A stretch of 64,000 nucleotides of DNA from an uncultured Gaiellaceae bacterium (GCA_963820635.1 CAWGAN010000003.1:583459-647458), one strand, 5' to 3'; counted from the first letter of the stretch, positions 36,331 to 54,078 are shown. Program-made: numbers and translations. Notes: generated by a model from the letters alone, not told the origin.

Positions 36331-36352
36331 TGTTGAGGGTTTCTTGAGCGGC
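36331..36352 (+). promoter_or_regulatory. Pair of 11-bp-phased TTGAG-type direct repeats upstream of the 36376 gene
   Basis: TGTTGAGggtt TCTTGAGcggc. The second heptamer ends 27 nt before ATG 36376. Confidence 0.5.
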
Positions 36353-36375
36353 CCGTCGGATCGTGAGGCGATCGG

Positions 36376-37696
36376 ATGGCTCTGCGATTCCTCATCTACG
36401 CCGCGTTCGCGGCACTCACGATCGGCTTCGCTCTGTCGCCGCTCGAGGGTTCGAGCGGAAAGCGAGTCGAGCCGACGCCCGAGGGCCGAGCCCCGACGCG
36501 GGCGGAGCTCGTGCCGGCAGTAGAGGCCGCATTCGCGCTCGAGAGCTACGCGCCGAACGAGACGGCGAAGCTCGTCATCTCGAATCGAGCGCGGGGAATC
36601 CGGCTGCAGATCTTCCAGTCCGGTCCCGAGAGCATCGTCACGCGCAGCAATCTCACGATGAACGGCGTGCCCGTGACGGAGACCCGATCGATCGGGTCTA
36701 GCGGCGGACAGCGGGTCGTCCGTGTGCAAGTCGGCGCGTGGCCGAGCGGTCTCTACTTCGCCCGGCTACGCGCCGCCGACGGACGCGTGGGCTTCGCGCC
36801 GTTCGTAGTCCGCCCGCGCTGGCTGGGCGTACACCGAGTCGCCGTCGTCCTGCCGACCCTCACGTGGCAGGCATACAACCTCCGCGACGAAGACGGCGAC
36901 GGCATCGGCGACTCCTGGTACGGAGACTGGAAGGTGAAGTCCGTTCGGCTCGGTCGCCCGTACCTGAGCCGTGGCGTGCCGTACAACTACCGCCGGTACG
37001 ACCTTCCCTTCCTCCACTGGCTCGCGCGAACGGGGAAGGATGTCGACGTTCTCTCGCAGTCCGACCTCGAATCGGCGCGCAGTGCGAGCGTCCTCGCCTC
37101 GGCCTACGACCTAATCGTCTTCCCCGGGCACCACGAATACGTCACGCTCCGGGAGTACGACCTCGTCGAGGGCTATCGCGACCTTGGAGGGAACCTGATG
37201 TTCCTCTCCGCGAACAACTTCTTCTGGCGTGTCGAGAAGCGAGGCGACGTTGTCACGAAGACGAGGCTCTGGCGCGACCTCGGACGTCCGGAGGCAATGT
37301 TGATCGGCGTCCAGTACCTGGCCAACGGCAAGGCGCCGCGTCGCCCGTGGATCGTCCGGAGCTCCCGCGCCGGGAGCTGGATCCTCGCCGGCACCGGCCT
37401 ACGTGCCGGATCGAAGCTGGGCCGCGGGGGTGTGGAGATCGACCGGCGCTCACCCGCGTCGCCCGCGGGACTCGAGGTGGTGGCCGAGATCCCGGATCTC
37501 TTCGGCCCTGGGATGACCGCACAGATGACCTACTACGAGACGAAGGGCGGCGCGAAAGTCTTCGCCGCGGGTGCCTTCTACTTCACGCGGCTCGCGCACG
37601 TCGACACGACGACGTCGCGCATTCTCGACAACCTGTGGGCGACGCCTCGCACGCCGGTGACCGTCGTGCGCATCGGCACTAGCATCCAGCGGGTGA
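36376..37696 (+). CDS. N,N-dimethylformamidase large-subunit-like (DUF6605-type) protein; 3' end inferred
   Basis: N-terminal hydrophobic segment, then VAVVLPTLTWQAYNLRDEDGDGIGDSWYG...DLIVFPGHHEYVTLREYD...GGNLMFLSANNFFWRV. The frame runs into the next gene. A GTGA junction at 37693-37696 would be restored by one indel. Confidence 0.5.
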
Positions 37697-38417
37697 CGAG
37701 GTACGTCGGCGTCCTCGCTGTGACTGTTGCCGTCTTGGCGCTCGGATCCGCCGCAGAAGCCCAGACCGCCGCTTCGCCGACTCTCCTCTGCAAGCCGCCT
37801 GCGGGCGTGCAGAAGCTGCCGCGGACCGCCCGGCATGGCGTGATCGACCACCTGCTCCAGTACCCGGCCGTGAACCTTGCGACGCGTGCCCAGCGCGGAC
37901 GCGCACGCGGGATCCTCGGCCAGCTCGTGGCGGCCGCGGATCGAGAGCGCTGGCGAAACCCCGCCGCCGCCGGGCGTGCCGGCTACGACATGGGGACGCG
38001 ACCGCGCAAGGCAGGCGACCGGGCCGTGTACTTCTTCCACGCGGAGCGAGACCAGGAGCGCAGGCGGGGCTCGATCTTCGACGCCGCGCGCCCGAAGGCG
38101 CTCATCTACGCGAACGCTCCCGGCCGGCCGCTGATCCTCGTCGGAGCAATGTGGAGCACGCGCGACGGCGAGCTCGGGCCGACACCTGCCGGGCCGATCC
38201 TCCGCTGGCACTCCCACATCGTCTGCAAGAGCGGGGCGAAGCGCGGCCTGAAGCCACCGCCGAGCGGGACCTGCCCAGCGGGCTCGCGGCTCACCCAGGG
38301 TACGAGCGAGATGCTCCACGTCTGGTTCACCGGGACCTGCGCAGCGCGTTCGCCATCAGCGCTCCGAGGCCCGAGCTGTGCGCGGTCGAGCTCCTGCCGC
38401 GCGACTCGTGCGGCTGA
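37693..38417 (+). CDS. Secreted protein of unknown function, apparent frameshift near 38330
   Basis: VTRYVGVLAVTVAVLALGSAAEAQ signal peptide, then a Cys-containing domain (LLCKPP...HSHIVCKSG...GTCPAGS). I recognise no family. Confidence 0.4.
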
Positions 38418-38421
38418 TCGG

Positions 38422-41400
38422 CTATCCGCCCAGATAGCGCTCGCGCTCGACCTCGGTCAGCTCGCGACGCGTCCCTGCGAGCCGGCGACCGGCGAGCTCG
38501 ACGAGCTCGTCGACATCTCCACAGGGTTCGCATCGATAGGTGCGGACAGTTCCATCGGCACCACCGGTCACGATGATCCGCCCGGACGGGTCGAACGCCA
38601 CGGCGGTCACGGTTCCCTCGTGGCCCCGGAGCCGGAGGATCAACTCGCCGTCGGTGGCGTCCCAGAGGCTCGCGCGAAGCGCGGCGGTGACGAGCCAATG
38701 ACCGTCCGGGCTGAAGGCGGCGTCTCTCACCGCGGTGTTGTGCTGGAGAGCGCGAGCGAGCTCGTTTGCCGGAAGGCTCCAGATGCGGGCGACGTGGTCG
38801 AGGCTCGTCGTCGCGAGGACGGTGCCGAATGGCGAGAACGCCACGGACGTGACTCGGTCGCGGTGCCCCGTCAGCGTCTCGGCCTCACCGTCCTGCCGGA
38901 CGATCACGACCCGCCCGCGCATCGTCGCGCTGCTGCCGTCGGGGCCGGTCACCCGGCGAGGCTTCCGCCTCGGGGCGCTCTCCGTGCTCACCTCGTCTCC
39001 GGTCGCGGGGTCGAGAACGAGCTTCCTACCCTCGCTCGTCCAGACGTTCACGCGATCGTCCACCGCCAGAGCCGTCACCGGCGCGCCGACCCGAGCGAGC
39101 TCCGTCAGCTCCGGCTGGAACACGCCGTCCCAGATCCTGATCGACTCGTCCTGGCTCGCGGTCACGATCGGGCTGCCCGCCCCTCCGCTGAACGCGGCCG
39201 ACTCGACCCAGCCGCGATGTCCCGAGAGCACGAACAGCTCGTCGCCGCTCTCCGCGTGCGACACGCGCGCGGTGTTGTCCTTCCCGGTGGTGACGACGTG
39301 CTCGCCGTCGGCGCTGAACGACACGTTCTTGAGAGCGTTCGTGTGGCCGGTGAGCGCAGAGGCCAGCCCCCAGTCGGCCGTGCGCCACACGCGGCCGGTC
39401 CCGTCCGTGCTCGCGCTCGCGACGAACTTCCCGTCGGGACTGAACGCGACCCCTACCGCGTTGCCGGCGTGCTCCGTCAAGACGTGCACTCTCCGCCCGC
39501 TCTGGCCCGACCACACGCGCACCGTGTCGTCGACGCCTCCTGTCAGCACGCGTCGGTTGTCGGGCGAGATCGCGGCGGACTGCGCGCCGGGGTGTGGGTA
39601 CGTGTAGAGGGTCCTCCCGGTCGAGACCTCGACGAGGCGCACGCCACCGGGCTGGACGACTGCCACCACCGTCGCATCGGGCGAGATCGCGGCCGCCACC
39701 GCGTCGCGCGCACCGGCGAGAGTGGAGACGGCGCCGCCCGCCGTGACGACGCGCACGAGACCGTCGCTGCCCGTGATCGCGGAGGTCCCGTCGTCGGCGA
39801 ACGCCGCCCCGCGCGCCCGAGCGCCCGTCGAGAACGTGTCGACGACAGCCCGGTCGACCGGCGTCACGATCATCACCTCACCTTCCTCCGTGACCGCGAC
39901 GACCTCGTGTCCGCGCACGGTGGCAGCGAGCACCGGCGCGCCGAGCTCCACGACGGCTCGCACGCGTGACTGGAGCAGCGCGTGCCGCAGCGCCTGCTCG
40001 GACGACTCGCTCGGGACGACGCGAGCCGCCTCGCGTGCGAGGACGAGGCTGAGCTCAGGGTCGCGATCGAGCTCGGCGTCGGCGCTCGCGACGAGCTCGT
40101 TCGCCTTCGCCTCCCGCGCCTGCTCGCGCGCCTCCGTCCGCTGGGAGAGCGCGTAGACCGTCACGGCACCCATCACCGCGAGCAGGACGGCGCCCACGAC
40201 GATGATCGCGAGCAGTTGCCGATGTCGTCGGTCGGACGCCTCCTGCTGCCGTTCGAGCTCCCGCTCGGCCTCGTGACTCGCGCGCCAGGCGACCACAGGC
40301 TCCGCGAGGACGTCGTGGAAGATCTCGTAGCGGACGGCGCCGCCCTCGTCGAGTGACCGGAGGATCCTTCGATCGGCGAGGATCGCGAGTACCGGCCGAA
40401 GCTCGTCGAGCGGGACGCGCCCGAAGTCGGCGAGATCGGACAGCTCGTGGGCGATCTTCGTGCCCGACGGCGTGACGAGATGGTCGAAGAGCCGTGCGGC
40501 GATGTCCTTCTGATTGTGCGACAAGGCGTCCATGGCGCTCTCGAAGTGCTCCTCGACGATGCGCTGCGCGCCGCCCAGGCTTTCGAACGTGGACAGACGA
40601 AGGATGCTCGAGCCCGCTTTCCGCTCCTCTTCCCACAGGCGCTGCATCACGAGCTGGAGATACGGCGCCTCGATGCGCGCGGTGTCCTCGACGCCTTCGA
40701 TCGAGCCGCGTCCCGCGAGCGCGGTCTCGATCCGACCGGCGCCCACCTCGTCGAGCACGCGCTCGACGAGCTCGGGCTCGATCTCGACTCGCACCCCGGC
40801 CAGCTCGCCGTAGCGATCGACAGGCCCCACGATCGCGGCGCGCGCGGCCTGACGGTCGAGCCGATCGAGTCGTAGTGTGTTCGCGAAGAGTCCCGGCACG
40901 CGCCCGGTGAAGCGATCGAGCTTCGCCAGGGAATCCTCACGCAGCGAGACGAGCACGTTGACACGCGACTGCGCGGCGAGGATCGACGGAAGAGCCTCCG
41001 CGAAAGACCCCGGACCACTGTCGTCGGCGTGGTACAGGAAGTACTCCTCTGCCTGGTCGAGAACGAGGTAGACGTCGCGCTCCGACTGCGCGTTTCGAAG
41101 CGCCGCGACGGCGGAGCCGTTCGACGTGTCACCCGTGGCTTCCGCGACCGCCTCTGCCACACCGACGCTCGGGTCGTCGCTCCAGCTCGAGAAGACGACG
41201 ACCAGCGGCCGCTCGGGCAGAGCGCGGAGAGAGCGCGCCACTGCAGCGCCGAGCAGCGACGATTTGCCGACCCCACTCGGCCCGTAGAGGACGGTGAGCC
41301 GCGATGCGATGAGGTTCGCGACGACGATCTCGGTCTCGCGCTCGCGCCCGAAGAAGAGGAGTGCGTCGAGCTCGGAATCCTCGAAGGCGGTGAGCCCCTT

Positions 41401-41433
41401 GTACGGCGACTCGGGTATCGGGCTCTCGTTCAC
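38422..41433 (-). CDS. STAND-type P-loop NTPase / single TM helix / WD40-repeat protein (1003 aa, intact)
   Basis: GTG 41431-41433 overlaps the TGA of the upstream gene (GTGA). Walker A is LYGPSGVGKSSLL (41260-41283) and Walker B is VYLVLDQAEEYF. The hydrophobic helix LLAIIVVGAVLLAVMGAVTVYAL lies at 40150-40215. About 530 aa of WD40 units follow (LTEHAGNAVGVAFSPDGKFVASASTDGTGRVW, LTGHTNALKNVSFSADGEHVVTTGKDNTARV, LTGHRDRVTSVAFSPFGTVLATTSLDHVARIW, LRGHEGTVTAVAFDPSGRIIVTGGADGTVRTY). Confidence 0.85.
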   Translation of the reverse strand: MNESPIPESPYKGLTAFEDSELDALLFFGRERETEIVVANLIASRLTVLYGPSGVGKSSLLGAAVARSLRALPERPLVVVFSSWSDDPSVGVAEAVAEATGDTSNGSAVAALRNAQSERDVYLVLDQAEEYFLYHADDSGPGSFAEALPSILAAQSRVNVLVSLREDSLAKLDRFTGRVPGLFANTLRLDRLDRQAARAAIVGPVDRYGELAGVRVEIEPELVERVLDEVGAGRIETALAGRGSIEGVEDTARIEAPYLQLVMQRLWEEERKAGSSILRLSTFESLGGAQRIVEEHFESAMDALSHNQKDIAARLFDHLVTPSGTKIAHELSDLADFGRVPLDELRPVLAILADRRILRSLDEGGAVRYEIFHDVLAEPVVAWRASHEAERELERQQEASDRRHRQLLAIIVVGAVLLAVMGAVTVYALSQRTEAREQAREAKANELVASADAELDRDPELSLVLAREAARVVPSESSEQALRHALLQSRVRAVVELGAPVLAATVRGHEVVAVTEEGEVMIVTPVDRAVVDTFSTGARARGAAFADDGTSAITGSDGLVRVVTAGGAVSTLAGARDAVAAAISPDATVVAVVQPGGVRLVEVSTGRTLYTYPHPGAQSAAISPDNRRVLTGGVDDTVRVWSGQSGRRVHVLTEHAGNAVGVAFSPDGKFVASASTDGTGRVWRTADWGLASALTGHTNALKNVSFSADGEHVVTTGKDNTARVSHAESGDELFVLSGHRGWVESAAFSGGAGSPIVTASQDESIRIWDGVFQPELTELARVGAPVTALAVDDRVNVWTSEGRKLVLDPATGDEVSTESAPRRKPRRVTGPDGSSATMRGRVVIVRQDGEAETLTGHRDRVTSVAFSPFGTVLATTSLDHVARIWSLPANELARALQHNTAVRDAAFSPDGHWLVTAALRASLWDATDGELILRLRGHEGTVTAVAFDPSGRIIVTGGADGTVRTYRCEPCGDVDELVELAGRRLAGTRRELTEVERERYLGG

Positions 41434-43043
41434 GCGGCCTCGAGCCGTCGCTCGAGCAGCTCGACGTACGACAACGGATCCACGTCGAGCGCGGCGACGT
41501 CGAACCGGCGCCAGAACGCCTGCGCGAGCGGGCTCGGCGAGCGCTGCACCGCCCACGAGCGGTACGCGACGGGTCGCTCGCCCCAGATGCGGTTGAGGAT
41601 GAGTCGCAGGTTCCAGTCGGCCATCTCGTAGCCGAGGAAGAGGAAGTGGCTGCGGCGAAGCCTGGCCGCGAGCGCGACCGGCACGACGGCAGTCAGCTCG
41701 GAGCGGCCGAGGTAGTCGATGTAGTCGTCCTCGGTGATGACGAAGCTCTCCCACTCGCGCTCGGGCAGCGGATCGACGGCGCCGTGGAGCTTCAGCAGGA
41801 TCGTGCGCCGGTCGAGGTCGAGCTCCGTCGCGTACGTGTTCGGAACGTCGATCGGGCGCGGCGGCTCTCCCGGCGGTCGGTGCCAGAAGCGCCCGCGGTG
41901 AGTCCCGGTTGCGACGTAGGCCACGATGTCGAGCTCCTCGCCGGCCTCTTCGAAGGCGCGCTCGAGGGCGAGGTCGTAGTTCGTGGTCACGATGAGCTGG
42001 TGGGGCGCACCGTGCTCTCGTAGGAGCGTCGGAAGCCGGGCGAGGAACCGCTGGAGCGGTCCCGGTTCCACCGCCGCCTCGAACCGGGTGTGAAGTTCGT
42101 CGTAGAGCGGGCCTGATCCCTGCATCGTCGCGACGTACTGGGAGACGCGCGCGAGGTCGACCGGGCGATCGTCCGGAACTGCAAATGCCCGGGCGAGATG
42201 CTCCGCGAGATCGCCCGCCCCGTCGAGACCGATGACGGGCACCACCCGGCCCGAGAGAAGAGCCTTGACGATCTCCCCCTCCTCGTCGGCGGGCGCCGGC
42301 CCGCCGGAGACAGTGAGCCCCGACTCGTGGCGAAGGATCTCCGCCTGGAGCCGCTTGAGCTCCGGGCCTGGCTCGATCCCGAGCTCGTCGAGGAAGCGGG
42401 CGCGAGCGTCGTGGTACACCTCGAGAGCTTCTGCTTGCCGACCCGCGCGATACAGCGCGAGCATGAGCTGCCTGCGAAACGTCTCACGAAGCGGGTGGTC
42501 GCCGGCGAGTCCCTCGAGCTCGCCGATCACGTCGCCGTGCCGCCCGAGCTCGAGCTCGGCGTCGATCCGCTCGCCGATCACGACGAGTCGCAGCTCCTCG
42601 AGCCGTCGGATCTCCGCCTGTGCGAAGTCGTCGAACGCGAACTCCACGAGCGCGGATCCACGCCACAGCGCGAGCGCGGACTGCAGCAGCGCGCTCCGCT
42701 CCTCTGCAGGAAGCCGCCGCGCGTCGGCGAGCGCCTGCTCGAACCGACGCGCATCGATCTGGTCAGCTCCGGCGTTGAGCACGTAGCCGGGTGCGCGGGT
42801 GTCGAGGATGTCGGTTCCCAGCGCCCGGCGCAGGCGTCCGACGGCGTTCTGGAGCGACGCAGTGGCCGTCTTCGGCGCCTCCTCGCCCCAGAGCGAGTCG
42901 ATGAGCCGATCGGTCGGGACGACCCTGCCGGCCTCGAGAACGAGGATGGCGAGGAGCGCGCGCTGCTTGGGGCCTCCGAGCGCGACATGCCCGGTCTCGT
43001 CTGAGACCTCGAGCGGGCCGAGTATCCGGAACTCGAGCGTCAC
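41430..43043 (-). CDS. SARP-type DNA-binding regulator (OmpR-like wHTH + BTAD) fused to a SIR2_2 (SIR2-like NADase/deacetylase) domain (537 aa, intact)
   Basis: VTLEFRILGPLEVSDETGHVALGGPKQRALLAILVLEAGRVVPTDRLIDSLWG... (wHTH). ALALWRGSALVEF...RRQLMLALYRAGRQAEALEVYHDARARFLDELGIEPGPELKRLQ (BTAD). SIR2_2 motifs are QLIVTTNYDLALERAF (TTNYD at 41973-41987), ILLKLHGAVD, FVITEDDYIDYL and HFLFLGYEMADWNLRLIL. An alternative GTG lies at 43097. Confidence 0.85.
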   Translation of the reverse strand: MTLEFRILGPLEVSDETGHVALGGPKQRALLAILVLEAGRVVPTDRLIDSLWGEEAPKTATASLQNAVGRLRRALGTDILDTRAPGYVLNAGADQIDARRFEQALADARRLPAEERSALLQSALALWRGSALVEFAFDDFAQAEIRRLEELRLVVIGERIDAELELGRHGDVIGELEGLAGDHPLRETFRRQLMLALYRAGRQAEALEVYHDARARFLDELGIEPGPELKRLQAEILRHESGLTVSGGPAPADEEGEIVKALLSGRVVPVIGLDGAGDLAEHLARAFAVPDDRPVDLARVSQYVATMQGSGPLYDELHTRFEAAVEPGPLQRFLARLPTLLREHGAPHQLIVTTNYDLALERAFEEAGEELDIVAYVATGTHRGRFWHRPPGEPPRPIDVPNTYATELDLDRRTILLKLHGAVDPLPEREWESFVITEDDYIDYLGRSELTAVVPVALAARLRRSHFLFLGYEMADWNLRLILNRIWGERPVAYRSWAVQRSPSPLAQAFWRRFDVAALDVDPLSYVELLERRLEAA

Positions 43044-43106
43044 GGGCGACCTTAGAACGCCGCGCAGGCTGTGTCCAGCATCCGGGCCACAGATCACTCG
43101 AATGCG

Positions 43107-43128
43107 CTCAAGACCCGCTCAAAGAGTG
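43107..43128 (-). promoter_or_regulatory. Pair of 11-bp-phased TTGAG-type repeats facing the SARP-SIR2 operon
   Basis: Read on the minus strand: CTTTGAGcggg TCTTGAG. The proximal heptamer lies 63 nt upstream of GTG 43043. Confidence 0.5.
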
Positions 43129-43172
43129 GTTAGCGAGCTGTTGGCCACCCGTTGCCGGCCGGTTGGAGACCC
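43129..43172 (+). promoter_or_regulatory. Four 11-bp-phased GTTAGC-type direct repeats facing the deacetylase gene
   Basis: GTTAGCGagct GTTGGCCaccc GTTGCCGgccg GTTGGAGaccc. They are in continuous 11-bp register with the two TTGAG-type units at 43107-43128. ATG 43190 lies 21 nt after the last heptamer. Confidence 0.55.
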
Positions 43173-43189
43173 CTCCGACCGTGCCGGGC

Positions 43190-43987
43190 ATGACTACCTC
43201 ATTCGCTCGTCTCGTCCGGCGGCTCGGACTCGCAGCCGCTATTGCGCTCGCCGCGGCGGGTGCCTCGACGGCCGACTCCACTCGCGGGCTGGATTCCGCC
43301 GCGGCCGCAGTCACCCCGACGACGCCTGTTCCGATCCTGATGTACCACGTGATCGCCGATCCTCCGCCGGGAGCCCCGTACCCGGAGCTCTTCGTCAGCG
43401 AGGCTGACTTCGCAGACCAGATGCGGTGGCTCGCGCGCCACGGATATCAGGCGGTTACGCAGCGCGATCTGTGGCACCACTGGCACCGCGGCGCCGCTCT
43501 CCCGCCGCGGCCGATCGTGCTCTCGTTCGACGACGGCTATCGCAGTGTTGCCGACGCGGCGTTCCCGCACATGCAACGGCGCTCCTGGCCCGGAGTCCTG
43601 AACCTGACCGTCAAGAACCTTCGCGTCTCGGGCGGACTGAGCGAGTCGAGAGTGCGGAGGCTGATCTCGGCCGGGTGGGAGCTCGCCTCCCACACGCTCA
43701 CGCATCCTGACCTCACGACTCTCAGTGGGCGTGCACTCGCGCGTGAAGTGAGCCGCTCGAGGATCGAGCTCCGATCGCGCTTCGGCGTCCCCGTCGACTT
43801 CTTCTGCTACCCGGCGGGACGGTACGACTCGAGCGTCATCCGGGCGGTTCGTCGCGCTGGGTATCGCGGCGCGACGACGACGGTGGAGGGCCTCGCACGG
43901 CCCGGCAAGCCGTACGAGCTTCGGCGCGTCCGGGTGAACGGAAGCGACGGCGTGGACGAGCTCGCCGCCAAGCTGCGTACGAGTTGA
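43190..43987 (+). CDS. Secreted polysaccharide deacetylase (NodB-homology/CE4) family protein
   Basis: MTTSFARLVRRLGLAAAIALAAAGAS signal peptide. Motifs are PILMYHVI, IVLSFDDGYRSV and LASHTLTHPDL. The ORF track starts at an upstream TTG (43163). Confidence 0.8.
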   Translation: MTTSFARLVRRLGLAAAIALAAAGASTADSTRGLDSAAAAVTPTTPVPILMYHVIADPPPGAPYPELFVSEADFADQMRWLARHGYQAVTQRDLWHHWHRGAALPPRPIVLSFDDGYRSVADAAFPHMQRRSWPGVLNLTVKNLRVSGGLSESRVRRLISAGWELASHTLTHPDLTTLSGRALAREVSRSRIELRSRFGVPVDFFCYPAGRYDSSVIRAVRRAGYRGATTTVEGLARPGKPYELRRVRVNGSDGVDELAAKLRTS

Positions 43988-44003
43988 GCAGGCCTTGAGC
44001 GAC
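43982..44003 (+). promoter_or_regulatory. Pair of 11-bp-phased TTGAG-type repeats upstream of a small ORF
   Basis: AGTTGAGcagg CCTTGAGcgac. The first heptamer contains the deacetylase TGA. ATGs follow at 44007 and 44022. Confidence 0.45.
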
Positions 44004-44006
44004 GTA

Positions 44007-44204
44007 ATGAACGCTGCGGCCATGTTCGAGCAGAACACCACGCCGAAGCTCATCGAAGAGATCGATCGCTATCTCGCGGCGATCGATCTCTTTCGCGCCG
44101 AAGGCTGCGAGCCGGCGTGGCAGCCTGAGCTCGAGCACCGCACTCCCTCGGCATCGTCCACGCCGGCGCCCGATCGCTTGCCTTCGGACATCCGGCTCCA
44201 CTGA
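44007..44204 (+). CDS. Small hypothetical protein (about 60-65 aa), start uncertain
   Basis: MNAAAMFEQNTTPKLIEEIDRYLAAIDLFRAEGCEPAWQPELEH... I see no recognisable domain. Codon usage is only weakly gene-like. Confidence 0.3.
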   Translation: MNAAAMFEQNTTPKLIEEIDRYLAAIDLFRAEGCEPAWQPELEHRTPSASSTPAPDRLPSDIRLH

Positions 44205-44323
44205 AGGTGACGTTCTAGGCGATCGCGACGATCGTCGGCGCACGAGACGCGTTGCCCACGGACAACGAGGCCGTCTTCGCCCAGACCAGTCGACAGGTGG
44301 GCTCGACGTAGACCACTCCGGCG

Positions 44324-44367
44324 GTTAGCCAGCTGTTAGCCGCTCGTGGTCGGGCGGTTAGGGGTCG
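44324..44367 (+). promoter_or_regulatory. Four 11-bp-phased GTTAGC-type direct repeats upstream of the 37-codon ORF
   Basis: GTTAGCCagct GTTAGCCgctc GTGGTCGggcg GTTAGGGgtcg. The last heptamer ends exactly 50 nt before ATG 44414. Confidence 0.55.
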
Positions 44368-44413
44368 GATCGAGCGTGACCGGCGCACACACGAATCCCG
44401 AGAGGAGGGAATC

Positions 44414-44527
44414 ATGCGCCAGGTCACTTCACTGCACCGCACGCTCGTCGTGCTCGCAGTCGGTCTGCTCGCGCTCGCGGCTCCGCTGCTCGCTTCGGCG
44501 GGCGGCCCAGGCCCCGGCACCGGGTAG
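44414..44527 (+). CDS. 37-codon ORF that is essentially only a signal peptide plus a Gly/Pro tail
   Basis: MRQVTSLHRTLVVLAVGLLALAAPLLASAGGPGPGTG. A strong RBS (GAGAGGAGGG) lies 5 nt before the ATG, and a terminator hairpin follows directly. It is absent from the ORF track because it is too short. Confidence 0.5.
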   Translation: MRQVTSLHRTLVVLAVGLLALAAPLLASAGGPGPGTG

Positions 44528-44547
44528 TCGTGTCCGAATCGACGACA

Positions 44548-44575
44548 CCAAGGCCCGCGTCCGAGCGGGCCTTGG
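44548..44575. terminator. Bidirectional hairpin between the 37-codon ORF and the convergent SARP-cyclase gene
   Basis: CCAAGGCCCGC-gtccga-GCGGGCCTTGG (11-bp perfect stem) followed by TCTTTCC. Confidence 0.7.
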
Positions 44576-44587
44576 TCTTTCCGTGCC

Positions 44588-47500
44588 CTACACCAATGCC
44601 ACGTCGTCCAGAAGAGCGCGCAGTTGGCGGAGTCCAACGACGTTACCCTTGGCCTCGTACAGCTCGAGTGCGTCGACGTAGGCAGCGCGCGCGTCTTCCG
44701 TTCGCCCTGCACGTGTGAGGATCTCACCCAGATCGCGGCACGCTTTCGCATGCTGATTGAGCGCATCGGTCGTCTCCGCAAGCTCGACGGCGGCGGCCGC
44801 CAGCTCCATGGCATCCTCGAGACGGTCAAGATGCGCCAGGACCTTTGCCCGAACGGGCATCCAGAGCACACGGGCGTCAACGTCATCGGCGGCCGAGTGC
44901 CGCTCTGCGACATCGGTCCAGGCCGAAGCTTCGTCGAAGCGCGCCAGCCGGTAGAGCGCCTCGGCACGGTCGCCCGCGCGGCTTGCGAGATGGCTGAACC
45001 CCCGAGTCTGCTCTAGCTCGCCACAGAGCCAGCGGAGCGTGGCTTCCGCCGCGATGACATCGCCCGCGAGGAGCTCGACATCTCCGAGGATCGCCGCGCT
45101 GAACGTCGCCGCCGAGGCCCGCTGTCCCAGCTCATCGAACGTCGCCCTGGCCGACGAGACGAGCGAGCGAGCTCGGTCGAAATCGCCCGTCTGCGCAACG
45201 AGACCGCCCAGGTACACCTCGATATTGGCTTGTCCGTATCGGTTCAGTGCCTCCGTCTCAATCAGCGCGTCACAGCGATCGATGGCATCCGCCACGCGTG
45301 TGGACCCGTAGTACAGCGCCTTCGCGATCTCGCCGGTCGCTGTCGAAGTCGGCCAGGTCGAACGCATGTAGTGGGTGAGTGCGCGCTCCGCCGCCGTCAG
45401 TCGCACGTCGTGATGGCCGCGATGCCCTCCCTCGATCCAACCAGCCAGAAGCAGCGCTCGGCCAACTGACCTGTCGTCACCTGCAGCCTCGAACACCGGG
45501 ATCGCGTCCGCCGTGATGGAGAGCAGGTCGTCGCCGGTGTCCGACCGAAGATGGATCCCCACATACGCGCCCTCCATCCGCGCATGGAGCTCGGTCGTCC
45601 TGTCGCCCACGGCGGTCGCGAGCCCGATGGCGCGCTCCACCGACGCGAGCGATGCCTCGAGATCTCCTCCTGCCCGCAGAGCGATCGCAAGCTCGGTCAG
45701 GAGCTCAGCCTCGAGCGCCGAAGGCAACGGGATCGCGGTCGCACGGCGAAGCAGGCCGATCGCCGCCGGTACGTCGCCTCGCTTCGCTGCACGGACACCG
45801 GCTTCACCCAGGCGGCGGCCCGCGTCGTCCGCGAGGCGCTCGGTCCTTCGATCCGATTCGCCAAGCTCGCTCCGCAGCCGGTACGCCCGCTCGAGGTGGT
45901 GGCCGACGAACTCGTCGAGCTCGGTGAGCTCCGCGTGGGCCTCCTCCAGCCTGTCCGCGTAGCGCTCGTGGAGGTCGGCGCGGAGCCGTTTTGGTGCCGC
46001 GCGATAGACCGCCTCTTGCACGAGGACGTGACGGAAGCTGAACGCCGTCTCGCCGCGTGGCCGTACAAACCCGCGATCGGAAAGAGTGCGCAGGTGAGAG
46101 TCGGCGGTCGGAGTCGCCTCCGGCTCGAGGAGCGATGTCAGGTCCTCGGCACTGAAGTCCTTGCCGATCACGGCGCCGCGTTCGAGCACCGCGCGCTCGC
46201 CGGGGCCGAGGCGGTCGAGACGTGCAGCGAGCAGCGCCTGGATCGTCTCCGGCAGCACACGCTCGGCGAGGCCACCTTCCAGCGCGAGGGCGAGGAGCTG
46301 TTCGAGGAAGAGGGGGTTTCCCTCCGCGGTCTCGGCGATGCGTACGCGCTGGTCCGACTCGAGCGTCGTCCCACCGAGGCCCTCGAGCAGCGCGTCCGTC
46401 TCGGCGGCGGAGAGCGTGTCGAGGAGAATCCTGTCCGCATTCGCGCGTCCCTCGAGGAACGTCGGCCGCTCCTCGAGGAGCTCCTCACGCGCGAGACACA
46501 CCACTGAGATCGCACCCGTCCCCTTGTCCACGAGGTGCTCGAGGAGCTCGAGGAACGTCGGCTCAGCCCAATGGACATCGTCGAAGACGAGGACGAGCGG
46601 CCGCTCGCGCGCGCTCGCTTCGCAGAACCGGCGGAAGAGCCAGGCGAGCTCGGGCGCGGGCGGCGGCGTCTCGGCGTCGAGCGAGGCGAGAACGGCGCTG
46701 CGCTCCTCGCTCGCTCCCGCGCGGTCGAGAACTTCGCGCAGCGGCCAGTACGTGATGCCCTCGCCGTACGAGAGACATCGGCCCCAGAGGGTCGTCACGC
46801 CCTTCGCGCGCCGGGTCAGCTCGGCGGCGAGGCGCGACTTCCCGACGCCGGGCGAGCCGACGACGACCGCGACGCGCATGACTGCACCGTCTCTGGAGCG
46901 CTTGAGCGTCCGTCGAAGCGCCGCGAGCTCGCGCTTGCGGCCGACGAGGCGCGCATCCTGCCGCTGCTGGAAGGCCGGCGCGATCGGGCTCAGCTCGAGT
47001 AGCCGATACGCGAGCACCGGCTCGCGCTTGCCCTTGATCGCGACCTCGCCCAGCGGATCCAGCACGGCGACGTGGTCGATCAGCCGCGCGGCGAGCGCGC
47101 CCACGACGATCTCGTTCGCGGCGGCGGCGGCTTCGAGCTTCGCGGCGATCCCGACCGCCTCGCCCGTGACGAGGCGCTGCCGAGCCTCGGTGGGGGTCGC
47201 GACGACCTCGCCCGCCTCGATCCCGATGCGGATCTCGAGCCCTACCGCGTGCTGTCGCGCGAGCTGCTCGTTGAGCGCCGCGATGCCGACGCGAATGTCG
47301 AGCGCCGCGCGGGCCGCGCGCAGCGCGTCGTCCTCGTGCGAGACGGGGATTCCGAACGCAGCCATGACCGCGTCGCCCGCGTACTTCTCCACCGAGCCGT
47401 CATGGCGCGCGATCGCCGCCGAAACCGTCTCGAAGTAGCTCCGCAGTACGGTGCCGAGCGCCTCCGGATCGAGCGCCTCCGCCAGAGCCATCGACTCGAC

Positions 47501-48340
47501 CACGTCGACGAAGAGGATCGTGACGAGCCGGCGGAACTGCATCGCCGGCCGCGCGAGCGGAGCCTCCTCTAGGAGCAGCGACTCGTCCTGGCGCAGGATC
47601 GCGGCCTCGAGCTCGCGCAGCTCGGGCCCGGGGTCGATCCCGAGCTCCTCGACGAGTGTCTCGCGTGCGGTGCGGTAGGCGGCGAGCGCGTCCGCCTGGC
47701 GACCCGAGCGGTAGAGCGCGAGCATGAGCTGCGCGCGAGGCCGCTCGCGAAGAGGCTGAGCGGCGACAAGCGCCTCGAGCTCGGAGACGAGCTCGGCGTG
47801 GCGGCCGAGCGCGAGGTCGGCTTCGATCCGCTCCTCGACGGCGACCGTGCGAAGCTCCTCGAGCCGGGCGATCTCGGTCTGCGCGAACGGCTCGTACAGG
47901 AAATCGGCGAGCGCGGGACCGCGCCAGAGCGCGAGCGCCTCACGGAGCGCACCTTCGGCCGCAGCAGGGTCCCCGCCCTCGAGAGCCGCCCGTCCGTCCT
48001 GCGCGAGACCGGCGAAACGGTGGACGTCGACGCGCTCAGGGGCGAGCTCGAGCTCATAGCCGGGCGCGCGTGCGGCGATCACGGGGCCGAGCGCCTTGCG
48101 GAGCTGCGAGACGTAGACCTGGACGGCGTGCGCGGCGGTCTCGGGTGGGTCGCCGGGCCATAGCGCCTCCACGAGCTTGTCGACGGAGACGACACGGCCC
48201 GGCTCGATTGCGAGCACGGCGAGGAGCGCGCGCGGCTTCGGCCCTCCGAGTGTGGCGGGGACGCCGTCCCGCTCGGCCTCGATAGGGCCGAGGAGCCGTA
48301 CGTCGAGCTCTGGGGTGCCTGCCCCGCTCGCTCCGTCCAT
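44588..48340 (-). CDS. SARP (wHTH+BTAD) / class III adenylate-guanylate cyclase / AAA-STAND ATPase / TPR protein (1250 aa, intact)
   Basis: LDVRLLGPIEAERDGVPATLGGPKPRALLAVLAIEPGRVVSVDKLVEALWPG (wHTH). RAQLMLALYRSGRQADALAAYRTARETLVEELGIDPGPELRELE (BTAD). VTILFVDVVESMALAE...GDAVMAAFGIP (cyclase). VVVGSPGVGKSRLAAEL and LVLVFDDVHWAE (Walker A/B). A long TPR-like C-terminus follows. Confidence 0.88.
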   Translation of the reverse strand: MDGASGAGTPELDVRLLGPIEAERDGVPATLGGPKPRALLAVLAIEPGRVVSVDKLVEALWPGDPPETAAHAVQVYVSQLRKALGPVIAARAPGYELELAPERVDVHRFAGLAQDGRAALEGGDPAAAEGALREALALWRGPALADFLYEPFAQTEIARLEELRTVAVEERIEADLALGRHAELVSELEALVAAQPLRERPRAQLMLALYRSGRQADALAAYRTARETLVEELGIDPGPELRELEAAILRQDESLLLEEAPLARPAMQFRRLVTILFVDVVESMALAEALDPEALGTVLRSYFETVSAAIARHDGSVEKYAGDAVMAAFGIPVSHEDDALRAARAALDIRVGIAALNEQLARQHAVGLEIRIGIEAGEVVATPTEARQRLVTGEAVGIAAKLEAAAAANEIVVGALAARLIDHVAVLDPLGEVAIKGKREPVLAYRLLELSPIAPAFQQRQDARLVGRKRELAALRRTLKRSRDGAVMRVAVVVGSPGVGKSRLAAELTRRAKGVTTLWGRCLSYGEGITYWPLREVLDRAGASEERSAVLASLDAETPPPAPELAWLFRRFCEASARERPLVLVFDDVHWAEPTFLELLEHLVDKGTGAISVVCLAREELLEERPTFLEGRANADRILLDTLSAAETDALLEGLGGTTLESDQRVRIAETAEGNPLFLEQLLALALEGGLAERVLPETIQALLAARLDRLGPGERAVLERGAVIGKDFSAEDLTSLLEPEATPTADSHLRTLSDRGFVRPRGETAFSFRHVLVQEAVYRAAPKRLRADLHERYADRLEEAHAELTELDEFVGHHLERAYRLRSELGESDRRTERLADDAGRRLGEAGVRAAKRGDVPAAIGLLRRATAIPLPSALEAELLTELAIALRAGGDLEASLASVERAIGLATAVGDRTTELHARMEGAYVGIHLRSDTGDDLLSITADAIPVFEAAGDDRSVGRALLLAGWIEGGHRGHHDVRLTAAERALTHYMRSTWPTSTATGEIAKALYYGSTRVADAIDRCDALIETEALNRYGQANIEVYLGGLVAQTGDFDRARSLVSSARATFDELGQRASAATFSAAILGDVELLAGDVIAAEATLRWLCGELEQTRGFSHLASRAGDRAEALYRLARFDEASAWTDVAERHSAADDVDARVLWMPVRAKVLAHLDRLEDAMELAAAAVELAETTDALNQHAKACRDLGEILTRAGRTEDARAAYVDALELYEAKGNVVGLRQLRALLDDVALV

Positions 48341-48405
48341 TCGTCGTCCCTCGATCTTGTGTGCCGTCGCACCTTCTCACGGTTGTCTGCGAATTTCCAT
48401 CCCCG

Positions 48406-48427
48406 TCTTGAGCCGTTCTTGAGAGGG
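48406..48427 (+). promoter_or_regulatory. Pair of identical 11-bp-phased TCTTGAG repeats upstream of the 127-aa ORF
   Basis: TCTTGAGccgt TCTTGAGaggg. The second heptamer ends exactly 50 nt before ATG 48474. Weaker TTCTCA/TGTCTG units lie upstream at about 48373-48405. Confidence 0.55.
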
Positions 48428-48473
48428 CGCGCGCACGCTGTGGCCATGCGAAACCCCAACCACGGAGGTCCTC

Positions 48474-48857
48474 ATGACTGCCCTCGTCGTCACCGTCTCG
48501 CCCGCGAACGGAATGTCCGACAAGGAGGGACGCATCGGGATCTTCCCAGGAGGGGCGACGACGACGATGTACCCGGCGAGCACGCCGTTCTGGGTGGGCT
48601 ACGGCTTTGCAGCCGACTCGGTCGGAGGCGTCGATCTCGAGGTCGACACGACGCGGTTCGAGCTCGACGTCGACGGGGAGCCCGTCTCGATGCTCACCGA
48701 CGTGCACACGGAGTCCGGGCTTCCCGTGCGCAAGACGAACATCGCCGAGTTTCCCGACGGCCTTCCCGCCGGCTGGCACGACTTCACCGGGCGCTGGTAC
48801 GACGGCGGGCGCCTGATCCTCTCGAGCCGCGCGGCGATCCAGTTCGTCGAGCCTTGA
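48474..48857 (+). CDS. Hypothetical 127-aa protein
   Basis: Intact ORF with a GGAGG RBS: MTALVVTVSPANGMSDKEGRIGIFPGGATTTMYPASTPFWVGYGF... I see no signal peptide and no recognised family. Confidence 0.5.
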   Translation: MTALVVTVSPANGMSDKEGRIGIFPGGATTTMYPASTPFWVGYGFAADSVGGVDLEVDTTRFELDVDGEPVSMLTDVHTESGLPVRKTNIAEFPDGLPAGWHDFTGRWYDGGRLILSSRAAIQFVEP

Positions 48858-48895
48858 GCGTTTCTTGAGCGTCGTCTCGCACGGTTCTCAACACC
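48852..48895 (+). promoter_or_regulatory. Four 11-bp-phased units (two TTGAG-type, two TCTC-type) upstream of the 159-aa ORF
   Basis: CCTTGAGcgtt TCTTGAGcgtc GTCTCGCacgg TTCTCAAcacc. The last heptamer ends exactly 50 nt before ATG 48942. The first unit contains the upstream TGA. Confidence 0.5.
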
Positions 48896-48941: not shown

Positions 48942-49421
48942 ATGAACGGACTGAAGATGCGGCGCCCGAGCCCGGCACTCGTCGTTGCGACCGTCGCGCT
49001 CTTCGTCGCACTCGGTGGAACCGCAGGTGCCGTCGTGACGCAGGCGGTGCCGCTCGCGAAGCGGGCGCTCGTTGCCGAAAACGCGAAGAAGCTCGGCGGC
49101 CAGACCGCTGCACAGGTCTCGGCGCAGGCGGTCAAGGCTGCGCAGGCCGCGGCGGCGGCTCCGGGGCCTGCCAGCACGGCGGCCGGCCTCGTGAGCACGA
49201 AGACGCAGTCGGCGTCCATCGCCGCCGACGACGCGCAGCTGTACAAGGTCAGTTGCGACGCGGGTCAGAAGGTGATCGGCGGAGGATTCTCGTCCGACGG
49301 GCCGGTTCAGGAGTTCGTCGAGTCCCGTCCCGAGAACGACACGACGTGGTCGATCGGGCTCATCAACTTCGACTCGGGCGCAGGGCACAGCGTCACGCTG
49401 TACGCCGTCTGCCTCAAGTAG
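48942..49421 (+). CDS. Membrane-anchored or secreted 159-aa protein, unknown function
   Basis: N-terminal helix PALVVATVALFVALGGTAGAVV, an Ala-rich linker, and a C-terminal two-Cys domain (YKVSCDAGQKVIGGGFSSDG...VTLYAVCLK). Confidence 0.5.
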   Translation: MNGLKMRRPSPALVVATVALFVALGGTAGAVVTQAVPLAKRALVAENAKKLGGQTAAQVSAQAVKAAQAAAAAPGPASTAAGLVSTKTQSASIAADDAQLYKVSCDAGQKVIGGGFSSDGPVQEFVESRPENDTTWSIGLINFDSGAGHSVTLYAVCLK

Positions 49422-49473: not shown

Positions 49474-50688
49474 CTACGTCACGGCGAGCTCGGTCACGGG
49501 CTCGCCGTCACTATGCCGCCACGTGATCGCCGCGAAGACGATCGCCATCCACGTGATCCCGAGGACGACGGCAGTGAAGAGCGGCACGACGCCCCAGTTC
49601 TCGAGGACCTGACCGGCGACGAGGAAGCCGAGCGGCGCGGCGAGCGTGTTGACCGAGATGACGGCGGTCATCACCTTCGCCCGGAGGTTCGCCGGCGTGC
49701 GAGCGGTGAGGACGGCGAGCGTCGGCCCGTTCACGAGCGGCGTGAAGAACGTCGCTGCGAAGAGGGCGACGAAGACGACCGGCCACGGAGGGAGGAACGG
49801 CAGTACCCACAGCGGGACCGCGAACGCCAGGATGCCGAGCGCCGCCAGCCGCAGAGGTGGGATCCTTCGCACCGCAAACACGGCGACGAGGCTTCCCACG
49901 AGCGCACCGGCTCCGAGCGCGCCGTAGAAGAGGCCGGCGATCCACGCGCTTCCGTCGAACTCGTCGAAGGCGTACACGGGAAGTCCGGCCGACATACCGG
50001 CGCTGAGGAATCCGAACGCCACAACCGTCGCGGCCATCGGCGCGAGCAGCCTGTCCTGGAGGACGAAGCGAATACCCGCGAGCACGCCGTGCTGGACGGC
50101 CTCGGCCACGGGCTTTCTCCGCGGCACGAACGCGAAAACGAGGACGAACGCGACGAGATACGTGGCCGCATCGACGTACAGGACGTTCGGCGCGCCGATG
50201 AACGGGATGAGCACGCCCGCAAGCACCGGCCCGATCAACGCGGCGAAGGCCGTCCCACCCTCGATCGAGCTGTTCGCCTGCGACATGCGCGTCTCGTCCT
50301 CGCCGACGAGCTCCGGCAGGATCGTCCGCTGTGACGCGAAGTACGGCGGCATGAAGCAGCCGAGCAGGGCGACGATCGCGAGCAGCAACCCGAAGCTGAG
50401 GATGCCCGCCGAGTACAGGAGCGGGATCGAGGCGAGTATCGGAGCGCGCGCGAAGTCCGCGACCAGCATCGTCGTCCGCGACCCGAGCCGCTGAACGACC
50501 GCCCCGCTGGGAATGCCGAGGATCGCCATGGGCAGGATCTCTGCCGCGAGAACGAGGCTCATCTTCCCGGGCGAGCCCGTCGTGACGAGCACGAACCACG
50601 GCAGCGCGAGGTACGTCATCCGCGTGCCGAGCACCGAGATCGTCTCGGCGAGGACGAGCGCGCTCACCGCACTGCGCTTGACCGGCAT
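49474..50688 (-). CDS. MFS transporter (EntS/macrolide-efflux-like)
   Basis: Intact 404-aa ORF with about 12 hydrophobic helices (LALPWFVLVTTGSPGKMSLVLAAEILPMAILGIPSGAVVQRLG...). It is divergent from a TetR gene. Confidence 0.8.
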   Translation of the reverse strand: MPVKRSAVSALVLAETISVLGTRMTYLALPWFVLVTTGSPGKMSLVLAAEILPMAILGIPSGAVVQRLGSRTTMLVADFARAPILASIPLLYSAGILSFGLLLAIVALLGCFMPPYFASQRTILPELVGEDETRMSQANSSIEGGTAFAALIGPVLAGVLIPFIGAPNVLYVDAATYLVAFVLVFAFVPRRKPVAEAVQHGVLAGIRFVLQDRLLAPMAATVVAFGFLSAGMSAGLPVYAFDEFDGSAWIAGLFYGALGAGALVGSLVAVFAVRRIPPLRLAALGILAFAVPLWVLPFLPPWPVVFVALFAATFFTPLVNGPTLAVLTARTPANLRAKVMTAVISVNTLAAPLGFLVAGQVLENWGVVPLFTAVVLGITWMAIVFAAITWRHSDGEPVTELAVT

Positions 50689-50759: not shown

Positions 50760-51323
50760 ATGCCGAAGATCACGACCGAGCGCCGAACCGAGCGACGCGA
50801 AGAGATCCTCCACGGCGCGCGCCGCTGTTTCGCCGAGCACGGCTACGAGGGCGCGACGGTGGTGAAGCTGGAGCGTGAGATCGGCCTGTCGCGCGGCGCG
50901 ATCTTCAACTACTTCTCCTCCAAGGACGACCTCTTTCTCGAGCTCGCGCGACGCGACAACGAGCGGTTGATCCAGCTGTGGATGCAGAAGGGCTGGGAGG
51001 CGACGCTGCGCGAGGTCGTCGAGGAGGATCCCGACTGGATCGGCGTCTACCTCGAGCTGAGCCGCAAGGAGCGGACGAATCCCGAGCTCAGCCGGCTGCA
51101 CCGCGCGCAGGCCGAGGAGCTCGCGCCCGCGCTCATCGAGCACGTCCGAGACGAGCAGGCACGCGGCGACCTCCGCGACGACGTACCGGCCGAGAAGATC
51201 GCCGGCTTCGTCAGCATCGTCGCAAACGGAATCGCGGTGCAGCTGGGAAGCGGCGAACGGATCCGCGACGTCGACACGCTCGTCGCGTTCGTCCGAAGCG
51301 CGGTCGGACCGCCTGCTACCTGA
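50760..51323 (+). CDS. TetR-family transcriptional regulator
   Basis: RREEILHGARRCFAEHGYEGATVVKLEREIGLSRGAIFNYFSSKDDLFLEL is the TetR HTH signature. The 187-aa ORF is intact. Confidence 0.88.
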   Translation: MPKITTERRTERREEILHGARRCFAEHGYEGATVVKLEREIGLSRGAIFNYFSSKDDLFLELARRDNERLIQLWMQKGWEATLREVVEEDPDWIGVYLELSRKERTNPELSRLHRAQAEELAPALIEHVRDEQARGDLRDDVPAEKIAGFVSIVANGIAVQLGSGERIRDVDTLVAFVRSAVGPPAT

Positions 51324-51861
51324 GCTCGTCCGGGTACGCCTTCGCGTACACGCGCCGGACGCGCTCGACCTCGTCGACGTACGCCCTGGTCTCCGGAAAC
51401 GCGATCCCACTGCCGTCCGCGAGCCACCGATCGACGTTCCCCTGCCCGGCGTGGTACGCGGCGAGCGCGAGCCGCGTGTCGCGGTCGTAGCGATCACGAA
51501 GGTGGTCGAGGTACCACGAGCCGTAGCGCACGTTGATCTCCGGATCGCGGAGATCCGACAGGACGAACTCGTCTCCGCCGGTGCGCAGCGCAATGCCTTT
51601 CGCGGTGTCCGGCAGGAGCTGCATCAGACCGACTGCGCCCGCCTCGGACTCCACATCCGGATCGAATCGGCTCTCCGCGTAGATCACGGCCGCGAGGAGC
51701 GCCGGGTCGAGATCGTAGTTCCGTGCATGAGCGCTGACGATGTGCTCGTACTCGAGCGGATAGCGCGCACGCAGGAACCAGTCCGGCTCGGCCTCGACGA
51801 CCCAGGCCGCGACGCCCGCGAACGCGAGCAACGCAACGGAGACTCCAACGAGGAACCGCAT
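51316..51861 (-). CDS. Lytic transglycosylase (SLT domain) with N-terminal anchor
   Basis: MRFLVGVSVALLAFAGVAAW...AVIYAESRFDPDVESEAGAVGLMQLLPDTAKGIA...AAYHAGQGNVDRW. Confidence 0.85.
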   Translation of the reverse strand: MRFLVGVSVALLAFAGVAAWVVEAEPDWFLRARYPLEYEHIVSAHARNYDLDPALLAAVIYAESRFDPDVESEAGAVGLMQLLPDTAKGIALRTGGDEFVLSDLRDPEINVRYGSWYLDHLRDRYDRDTRLALAAYHAGQGNVDRWLADGSGIAFPETRAYVDEVERVRRVYAKAYPDELR

Positions 51862-53988: not shown

Positions 53989-54078
53989 CGGATCGCGGAG
54001 TATAGCCGGATGCAGCGCAAATTCCGGCCAACACTGGTACCCGTCGGAGCACCCCTTCCGATGCGCTAGAAACACCGG

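Follow-up and report, generated by a model that had tools for sequence, protein, structure and literature searches.

Which protein, if any, reads the phased TTGAG repeats that precede five transcription units in the genome of an uncultured soil actinobacterium of the Gaiellaceae? The repeats lie in a 64,000-nucleotide stretch of DNA (GCA_963820635.1, CAWGAN010000003.1:583459-647458; hereafter the window), where a first-pass annotation had described pairs of TTGAG-type heptamers at exact 11-bp phase between positions 36,331 and 48,895 and proposed them as operators of a locally encoded Streptomyces antibiotic regulatory protein (SARP). Two proteins with Trans_reg_C and BTAD domains are encoded beside the sites, as judged by Pfam. 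One, of 1250 amino acids, also has Guanylate_cyc, AAA_16 and TPR domains, with no LuxR domain (hereafter SARP-cyclase); the other, of 537 amino acids, carries a SIR2_2 domain (SARP-SIR2). We conclude that the pairs are probably activator boxes of SARP-dependent promoters forming a local regulon, with the 1250-residue protein as the most likely binder. The five sites are listed here as 22-bp boxes, each with its −10 hexamer, predicted transcription start site (TSS), weight-matrix score and target.

Box 1: 36331..36352, plus strand, tgTTGAGGGtttcTTGAGCG; −10 GATCGT at 36359-36364; predicted TSS ~36371; 34.6 bits; target the DMFA2_C-like gene (ATG 36376, predicted 5-nt leader).
Box 2: 43103..43124, minus strand, ctTTGAGCGggtcTTGAGCG (read on the minus strand); −10-like TGATCT at 43096-43091; predicted TSS ~43084; 34.2 bits; target the SARP-SIR2/nSTAND1-WD40 operon.
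Box 3: 43982..44003, plus strand, agTTGAGCAggccTTGAGCG; −10 AACGCT at 44010-44015; predicted TSS 44022, the A of the target's ATG; 33.1 bits; target a small open reading frame (ORF).
Box 4: 48406..48427, plus strand, tcTTGAGCCgttcTTGAGAG; −10 CACGCT at 48434-48439; predicted TSS 48446; 46.2 bits; target the gene for a 127-amino-acid protein (127-aa gene); the SARP-cyclase gene, which is divergent, has its start codon 68 nt from the box.
Box 5: 48852..48873, plus strand, ccTTGAGCGtttcTTGAGCG; −10 CACGGT at 48880-48885; predicted TSS ~48892; 41.7 bits; target the gene for a 159-amino-acid protein (159-aa gene).

All five pairs are present, with the first T of the first TTGAG at 36333 (plus), 43122 (minus), 43984 (plus), 48408 (plus) and 48854 (plus). 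The arrangement TTGAG-N6-TTGAG is expected 0.03 times in the window and occurs five times, a count reached by none of 100 dinucleotide-preserving shuffles. TTGAG itself is scarce in this DNA (69% GC): there are 48 copies on both strands, 10 of which make up the five pairs, and among same-strand copies up to 60 nt apart no spacing other than 11 bp occurs. A weight matrix was trained on related loci only, with the window left out, and then run on the window. It scored the five sites at 33–46 bits and everything else at 8 bits or less, found no TTGAG pairs in 51 kb of window flanks, and gave a mean maximum of 2.3 bits on shuffled sequence. The first-pass annotation had noticed no further phased pairs, and this holds throughout the window. 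Allowing one mismatch added a single pair (62002-62017), which scores no more than 8 bits by the weight matrix and was rejected as a site.

Some details of the earlier description needed correction. The minus-strand site, given as 43107-43128, spans 43124-43107 and so stops short of 43128. The 'two further 11-bp units' said to follow 48852 are the 8-nt spacer and the −10 hexamer CACGGT (48880-48885) and contain no repeats. The statement that every pair is intergenic does not strictly hold for boxes 3 and 5, where the TGA stop of the upstream gene (polysaccharide deacetylase, 43985-43987, and the 127-aa gene, 48855-48857, respectively) lies inside the first TTGAG. Here the next promoter starts within the last codons of the preceding gene, which makes for very compact promoter packing. 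Overall, the TGA stop of the upstream gene is embedded in a TTGAG pentamer at 29 of 161 sites.

To define the promoter around the pairs, we aligned 150 unique sites from 45 related loci, selected by TTGAG-N6-TTGAG alone and numbered from the first T. Four of these loci came from exact protein look-up and three from the surroundings of DMFA2-like homologues (L043, L044 and L045); the other 38 were taken from species-representative genomes with the 127-aa family as query (49–97% identity). The consensus over the 150 sites is c-C-TTGAG-C-g-k-T-y-C-TTGAG-C-G. Positions 19–26 are without constraint; beyond them, 132 of the 150 sites (88%) have A at position 28 and 145 (97%) have T at position 32, defining an nAnnnT −10 hexamer at positions 27–32, exactly 8 nt past the second heptamer (positions 12–18). 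Further downstream, position 38 is C and position 39 a purine in 105 sites each. A predicted purine start 7 nt beyond the −10 hexamer, with 6 nt between them, places the 22-bp box at −40 to −19. The spacing TTGAGNN-N4-TTGAGNN does not vary among the five boxes of the window and the 147 exact matches from related loci, and the number of heptamers in the alignment is always exactly two. A third upstream repeat or further units were rejected, as neither positions −10 to −6 nor the stretch past the second heptamer are conserved. The string CTGYGGCCATG, shared by sites 2–4, was also dismissed as a −10 element: the 150-site matrix puts the −10 at nAnnnT, and CATG belongs to the start-site region.

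This layout corresponds to the published SARP rule, in which 8 bp separate the 3′ repeat from the −10 hexamer and the repeats are 11 or 22 bp apart (PMC10936776). The earlier proposal that the pairs are promoter-associated and face start codons is supported by the 8-nt distance to the −10 hexamer, and the proposal that they overlap the −35 region as SARP operators do agrees with the predicted box position, which matches the published geometry. No TTGACA-like hexamer was found 16–18 nt before the −10, the position of the box itself resting on the predicted TSS. The two TTGAG copies are separated from the −10 by 20 and 9 nt; since neither is 16–18 nt away, these promoters appear to lack a usable −35. 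A simple sigma-70 consensus scan of 36.0–49.5 kb returned no promoter, and for promoters without a −35 such a scan is uninformative.

The start-site register is supported by the small-ORF family, in which the start codon coincides with the predicted TSS in all six members. The same is true of both members of another family, and in locus L001 an independent gene call places the small-ORF start at 5365, again at the predicted TSS. The small-ORF mRNA is therefore predicted to be leaderless. Typical predicted leaders elsewhere are 26–29 nt for the 127-aa gene, 21–27 nt for the S8 protease and ~50 nt for the 159-aa gene, with 5 nt for the DMFA2-like gene and ~41 nt for SARP-SIR2.

The boxes are kept at orthologous promoters. 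In the first 42 related loci (698 kb), 147 exact TTGAG-N6-TTGAG pairs were found, compared with ~0.3 expected by chance at the rate of the window. A weight-matrix scan of the relatives added 13 matches above 10 bits, mostly sites with one mismatch (TTGAAC, CTGAG) and a good −10. In most of the 42 loci a box lies ~65 nt 5′ of the ATG of the 127-aa orthologue, down to 49% protein identity, and relatives carry another directly 3′ of this gene, upstream of a Peptidase_S8 gene or a 159-aa gene; 27 boxes precede members of the 159-aa family. Boxes are also found upstream of the small ORF, of RTX-like (HemolysinCabind) proteins and of other proteins with signal peptides. On the opposite strand, a box precedes SARP-SIR2; of 21 orthologous promoters of this gene, 18 have a box oriented with it. 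The box 43 nt 5′ of the DMFA2-like ATG is found at the same distance in L043, L044 and L045 as in the window. The idea of a small regulon of local units is supported by these data, and in relatives the predicted regulon is larger and more variable than the five units of the window. In L044, back-to-back boxes ~13 bp apart, 9945 (minus) and 9958 (plus), serve divergent polysaccharide deacetylase and DMFA2-like genes. In L036, a distant relative labelled 'Actinomycetes bacterium nzgw110', the box directly follows a Peptidase_S8 gene.

The boxes are also restricted in their distribution. In the 25 loci with full flanks they all fall between −10 and +5 kb relative to the 127-aa gene, and the housekeeping flank from +5 to +10 kb (~135 kb in these loci) contains none. 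Together with the empty flanks of the window, this speaks against such pairs being common and unconnected with promoters. In metagenome contigs, an 18-position pattern matched at least 120 stretches, ~95 of those listed being in high-GC contigs. Among the matches listed, 58 of 113 downstream ORFs belong to families of the cluster, and several of the contigs have between two and four boxes, or encode a SARP. The representatives examined among the remaining downstream ORFs encode mostly signal-peptide proteins (PD40 propeller, Big_3_5, hydrolases). As the metagenome boxes precede such diverse ORFs, the cargo of the regulon appears to be variable. A 14-base pattern gave scattered matches in viral contigs, nearly all of them one per contig among the matches listed, and a weight-matrix rescan of these found no viral locus with more than one match above 25 bits. 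Patterns as short as 14 bases proved useless for collection-wide counting.

Which of the two SARPs reads the boxes? The SARP domain of the 1250-residue protein matches the solved structures of AfsR (E = 1e-51) and EmbR (E = 4e-45), and its gene is tightly linked to a box: in all 40 mapped starts of SARP-cyclase genes a divergent box lies 61–78 nt from the start codon, and in none of the 40 is there a box in the gene's own orientation. Where an extra gene has come between the SARP-cyclase and 127-aa genes (L035 and L039), the box stays beside the regulator. The recognition helix of the cyclase-type SARP, HA[VI]QVYVSQLRK, is invariant in all orthologues, whereas that of SARP-SIR2 varies. The two SARP domains (about residues 1–255 of each protein) are 51% identical and their recognition helices differ, with the positions equivalent to AfsR T88 and R92 occupied by V75 and Q79 in the cyclase-type SARP and by N and R in SARP-SIR2; the DNA sequences read by the two proteins are probably not the same. 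In about a dozen loci the 127-aa gene and genes downstream retain their boxes although SARP-SIR2 is not encoded within 10 kb, and in L044 the SARP-SIR2 promoter (15910-16000) has no box while boxes are kept elsewhere in the locus. On the strength of the box-regulator linkage, the invariant helix, the loci without SARP-SIR2 and L044, a cascade in which SARP-cyclase activates the SARP-SIR2/STAND operon is favoured over autoregulation, and we consider SARP-cyclase as binder, with that operon as its cascade target, a good deal more probable than autoregulation. The first-pass annotation had implied autoregulation of the SIR2/STAND operon: the operon does carry the box, but the comparative data favour the other SARP as its binder.

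The main competing explanation is that SARP-SIR2 binds the boxes and activates its own operon along with the other units, SARP-cyclase recognising something else. The protein has a complete Trans_reg_C and BTAD module, positive autoregulation is common among activators, and box 2 stands in the gene's own orientation in most orthologous promoters. We nevertheless regard this as unlikely, given the dozen or so loci that have boxes and lack the gene, the L044 promoter that lost its box while others were retained, and a recognition helix that varies while the box does not. A SIR2 fusion in an operon with a STAND NTPase would also suggest an effector rather than a dedicated transcription factor. 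A different candidate is a non-SARP response regulator of the OmpR/PhoB family encoded elsewhere in the genome, with pho-box-like repeats replacing the −35. Regulators of the PhoB/PhoP type do use 11-bp-phased direct repeats at −35, and pho boxes resemble the sites described here in having 7-bp direct repeats with 4-bp spacers at the −35 position of activator-dependent promoters. They differ in repeat sequence, and the E. coli pho box lies ~10 nt from the −10, compared with 8 nt here, which is the SARP distance. Moreover, TTGAGNN is one base off TCGAGXX, the classical heptamer of SARPs, the boxes do not extend beyond a cluster that always has a SARP gene 61–78 nt from a box, and the cluster genes examined, both in the window and in annotated relatives, include no receiver-domain (Response_reg) protein. 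A box in L036 that has no SARP gene nearby would fit such a regulator, which we nonetheless consider highly improbable. Least credible of all is that the pairs are not regulator sites and represent either a −35-type element peculiar to this lineage, recognised directly by a sigma factor, or a dispersed repeat, for example what remains of a repetitive extragenic palindrome (REP) or miniature inverted-repeat transposable element (MITE). TTGAGC resembles the TTGACA −35 hexamer and a −10 hexamer always accompanies it, yet the spacers of 20 and 9 nt fall outside 16–18 nt, and a general promoter element would be expected at the housekeeping promoters of the flanks, which have none. A dispersed or mobile repeat is contradicted by the lack of extension past 22 bp or of inverted ends, and by conservation at orthologous positions in the orientation of the genes.

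The restriction of the boxes, their −10 geometry and the adjoining SARP genes all point to operators of a locally encoded SARP. Several observations weigh against the assignment to SARP-cyclase and a local regulon. The L036 box (9934, plus), upstream of a 127-aa homologue, has no SARP gene within 10 kb on either side. About half of the listed high-GC metagenome matches lie upstream of genes outside the defined families, and boxes may exist outside the cluster, elsewhere in the genome. The hexamer of the SARP-SIR2 promoter is TGATCT and does not conform to nAnnnT. As PhoB/OmpR-type response regulators share the box geometry, the architecture alone is not specific to SARPs. Finally, PimR, the best-studied SARP with a cyclase-like/ATPase C-terminus, binds CGGCAAG, and not over the −35 (PMC3367932).

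The predicted architecture can be compared with known SARP promoters. The AfsR-dependent afsS promoter of S. coelicolor, described from a cryo-electron microscopy structure of the initiation complex, likewise has a 22-bp afs box of two 11-bp repeats at −40 to −19, centred at −29.5 (PMC10936776). Its 3′ repeat is 8 bp from a weak −10 with no usable −35, as here, where the position is predicted, and by published coordinates the gap between its poor −35 and −10 is also 20 nt. AfsR, like SARP-cyclase, is a large SARP in which ATPase and TPR modules follow the SARP domain. In contrast, the repeat here is TTGAGNN and not the afs-box repeat, the base-contacting T88 and R92 are replaced by V and Q in the cyclase-type SARP, and a cyclase-homology domain and AAA_16 take the place of the NOD of AfsR. 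The host is also different, being a member of the Gaiellaceae (Thermoleophilia), and in place of an antibiotic pathway the predicted targets are mainly secreted proteins. The small ORF behind box 3, about 60 amino acids long and next to the regulator gene, recalls afsS beside afsR, the resemblance being one of position and size.

ActII-ORF4 and DnrI recognise TCGAGXX heptamers with 4-bp spacers (Wietzorrek & Bibb 1997 and Tanaka 2007, as cited in PMC6510168). Their promoters share with the present ones the heptamer repeats, the 4-bp spacers and the location upstream of the −10, TTGAG and TCGAG differing by one base. However, these are small SARPs of antibiotic clusters, often with three repeats, unlike the two repeats and large multidomain SARPs described here. 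SARP-LAL regulators are defined by an N-terminal SARP domain, a guanylate-cyclase-like region and an ATP-binding region, with no LuxR helix-turn-helix (PMC3367932, PMC10972967), and the 1250-residue protein has this domain order by Pfam. Like PimR, SanG, PolR and FilR (PMC3367932, PMC5930380, PMC10972967), it is encoded divergently from a predicted target whose operator heptamers are separated by 4 bp. The SARP-LAL heptamer is CGGCAAG, however, compared with TTGAGNN, and the PimR operator lies ~55 nt upstream of the −35 of a single target, whereas the box here is predicted to cover the −35 position. PimR is also without a cyclase signature; the 1250-residue protein matches nearly the whole Guanylate_cyc profile (positions 8–179 of 183, E = 2e-18). 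SARP-LALs regulate antibiotic clusters, and the cluster genes examined here included none for polyketide or nucleoside biosynthesis. A literature search on SARPs in Gaiellales and on BTAD-SIR2-STAND proteins found nothing relevant.

We infer from sequence the TSSs, protein binding, activation rather than repression, and which SARP binds. In the mechanism that we propose, each promoter would consist of TTGAGNN-N4-TTGAGNN, 8 nt, nAnnnT, 6 nt and a purine start, with a box at about −40 to −19 in place of a usable −35. By analogy with AfsR, a side-by-side dimer of SARP domains (OmpR-type winged helix plus BTAD) would occupy both repeats on one helix face and recruit RNA polymerase holoenzyme through contacts with sigma region 4 and core enzyme ('sigma adaptation'). 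The SARP domain would be that of the 1250-residue SARP-cyclase-AAA_16-TPR protein encoded divergently from box 4, and its C-terminal cyclase-like, ATPase and TPR modules may gate the SARP domain on a signal. The genes switched on would be the DMFA2-like gene, the SARP-SIR2/STAND-WD40 operon, the leaderless 60-residue ORF and the 127-aa and 159-aa genes, and in relatives also S8 protease, RTX-like and other secreted proteins.

SARPs have been studied almost entirely as activators of antibiotic pathways in Streptomyces, and Gaiellaceae are an abundant lineage represented here only by metagenome-assembled genomes. Judged by its sequence features, the locus shows the textbook architecture of SARP promoters, here in a new lineage and with targets unrelated to antibiotics; the full promoter grammar (an 11-bp period of the heptamers, a gap of 8 bp before the −10 and a box from −40 to −19) was recovered from sequence alone. 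The nAnnnT −10 consensus and predicted leaderless initiation appear to hold in these promoters. The ~170 aligned natural promoters provide a data set on the specificity of a SARP domain (TTGAGNN versus TCGAGXX) and supply predicted start sites and regulator-target pairs testable in a heterologous host. A more speculative extension, which we think quite unlikely, is that the large SARP, whose cyclase-homology domain appears intact, is a signal-gated master switch licensing a defence-like SIR2-NADase/STAND-WD40 operon and variable secreted hydrolases and surface proteins. SARP-SIR2 would then be no transcription factor; by tethering to these boxes or related ones, or by competing there, it would link an NAD-depleting effector with promoter DNA. 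If true, an uncultured actinobacterial lineage would have a stress or immunity programme that is fixed in the chromosome, controlled by a SARP and separate from the regulation of antibiotics.

The genes around the boxes are as follows.

34267 to ~36290, minus strand: uvrB.
36376..38416, plus strand: DMFA2_C-like gene, target of box 1; runs in-frame into a homologue of a 241-residue gene.
38422..41433, minus strand: nSTAND1 NTPase with WD40 repeats (Pfam), second gene of the box 2 operon.
41430..43043, minus strand: SARP-SIR2, 537 amino acids (Trans_reg_C, BTAD and SIR2_2 by Pfam).
43190-43987, plus strand: polysaccharide deacetylase.
44022..44204, plus strand: conserved small ORF of 60 amino acids, target of box 3, predicted leaderless.
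44588..48340, minus strand: SARP-cyclase-AAA_16-TPR protein, 1250 amino acids (Pfam).
48474..48857, plus strand: 127-aa gene, target of box 4, with a GGAGG ribosome-binding site and a predicted 28-nt leader.
48942..49421, plus strand: 159-aa gene, target of box 5, its product having an N-terminal signal or anchor sequence.
49474-50688, minus strand: MFS transporter.
50760-51323, plus strand: TetR.
51316-51861, minus strand: SLT.
52474-54711, minus strand: rpsA-like S1 protein.
54819-57386, minus strand: polA.

The first-pass annotation referred to this region as an island. The window is uniform in GC content, and relatives have the cluster in synteny, between uvrB and coaE/rpsA/polA, so it is better described as a conserved chromosomal region with variable cargo. 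The box targets encode secreted proteins or proteins of unknown function, a protease and the SIR2/STAND operon; none of the cluster genes examined, in the window or in annotated relatives, was found to encode a biosynthetic enzyme. No Rfam RNA family was found in the window.

The 127-aa protein has 596 homologues, the best 120 of which are 78–91% identical; the few with a source name are labelled Gaiellaceae, and the gene always adjoins the large SARP gene. At 97% identity, the nearest homologue found lies on contig CAVUTA010000017.1 of bin MFD00962.bin.2.84. Exact look-up with this protein matched only a 1.3-kb contig. It has no Pfam family and no signal peptide, and its AlphaFold2 model is an immunoglobulin-like beta-sandwich with a predicted local distance difference test (pLDDT) score of 64 and generic PDB matches only, from which no function can be inferred. 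The 60-residue ORF, which has no Pfam family, sits beyond the 3′ end of the large SARP gene, and orthologues of 58–64 amino acids are called in L001, L004, L043 and L045.

The DMFA2_C homologue proper occupies 36376-37641, most of the listed Gaiellaceae homologues being ~420–430 amino acids long. Its own stop is lost, and the reading frame continues into a homologue of a separate 241-residue gene (37693-38331). With a frame change at ~38304-38331, the true end of the gene lies near 38416. We rejected the 1197-residue ORF (36376-39969) as one gene: it is an artefact of the lost stop and the frame change, the rest being an open antisense frame of the WD40 gene. The read-through reflects either an assembly indel or a real fusion, and fused homologues of 660–667 amino acids exist.

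The SARP-SIR2/STAND operon (38422-43043, minus strand) is conserved in many Gaiellaceae loci, with nSTAND1-WD40 orthologues overlapping their upstream neighbour by 4 nt. Aligned orthologous promoters place the true start of SARP-SIR2 at the GTG at 43043 ('VTLEFRILGPLEV'). In composition, the operon resembles a NADase/STAND conflict system under SARP-box control. An inverted repeat, CTGTGGCC-N8-GGACACAG (43069-43092, minus strand), lies across the predicted SARP-SIR2 start site, with 'GCTGGACAC' as its conserved core. It is perfect in L018 and L037, present as compensatory variants in L001 and L004, and absent from L043. This could be a repressor operator, adding a second layer of control to the SIR2/STAND operon.

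A further block, GAATTTCCATCCCC (48391-48404), lies directly 5′ of box 4. Its CCATCCC core is kept in most orthologous intergenic regions between the SARP-cyclase and 127-aa genes and at no other box. The block probably serves the divergent SARP-cyclase gene as its promoter or as an operator; no TTGAG box belongs to that gene itself.

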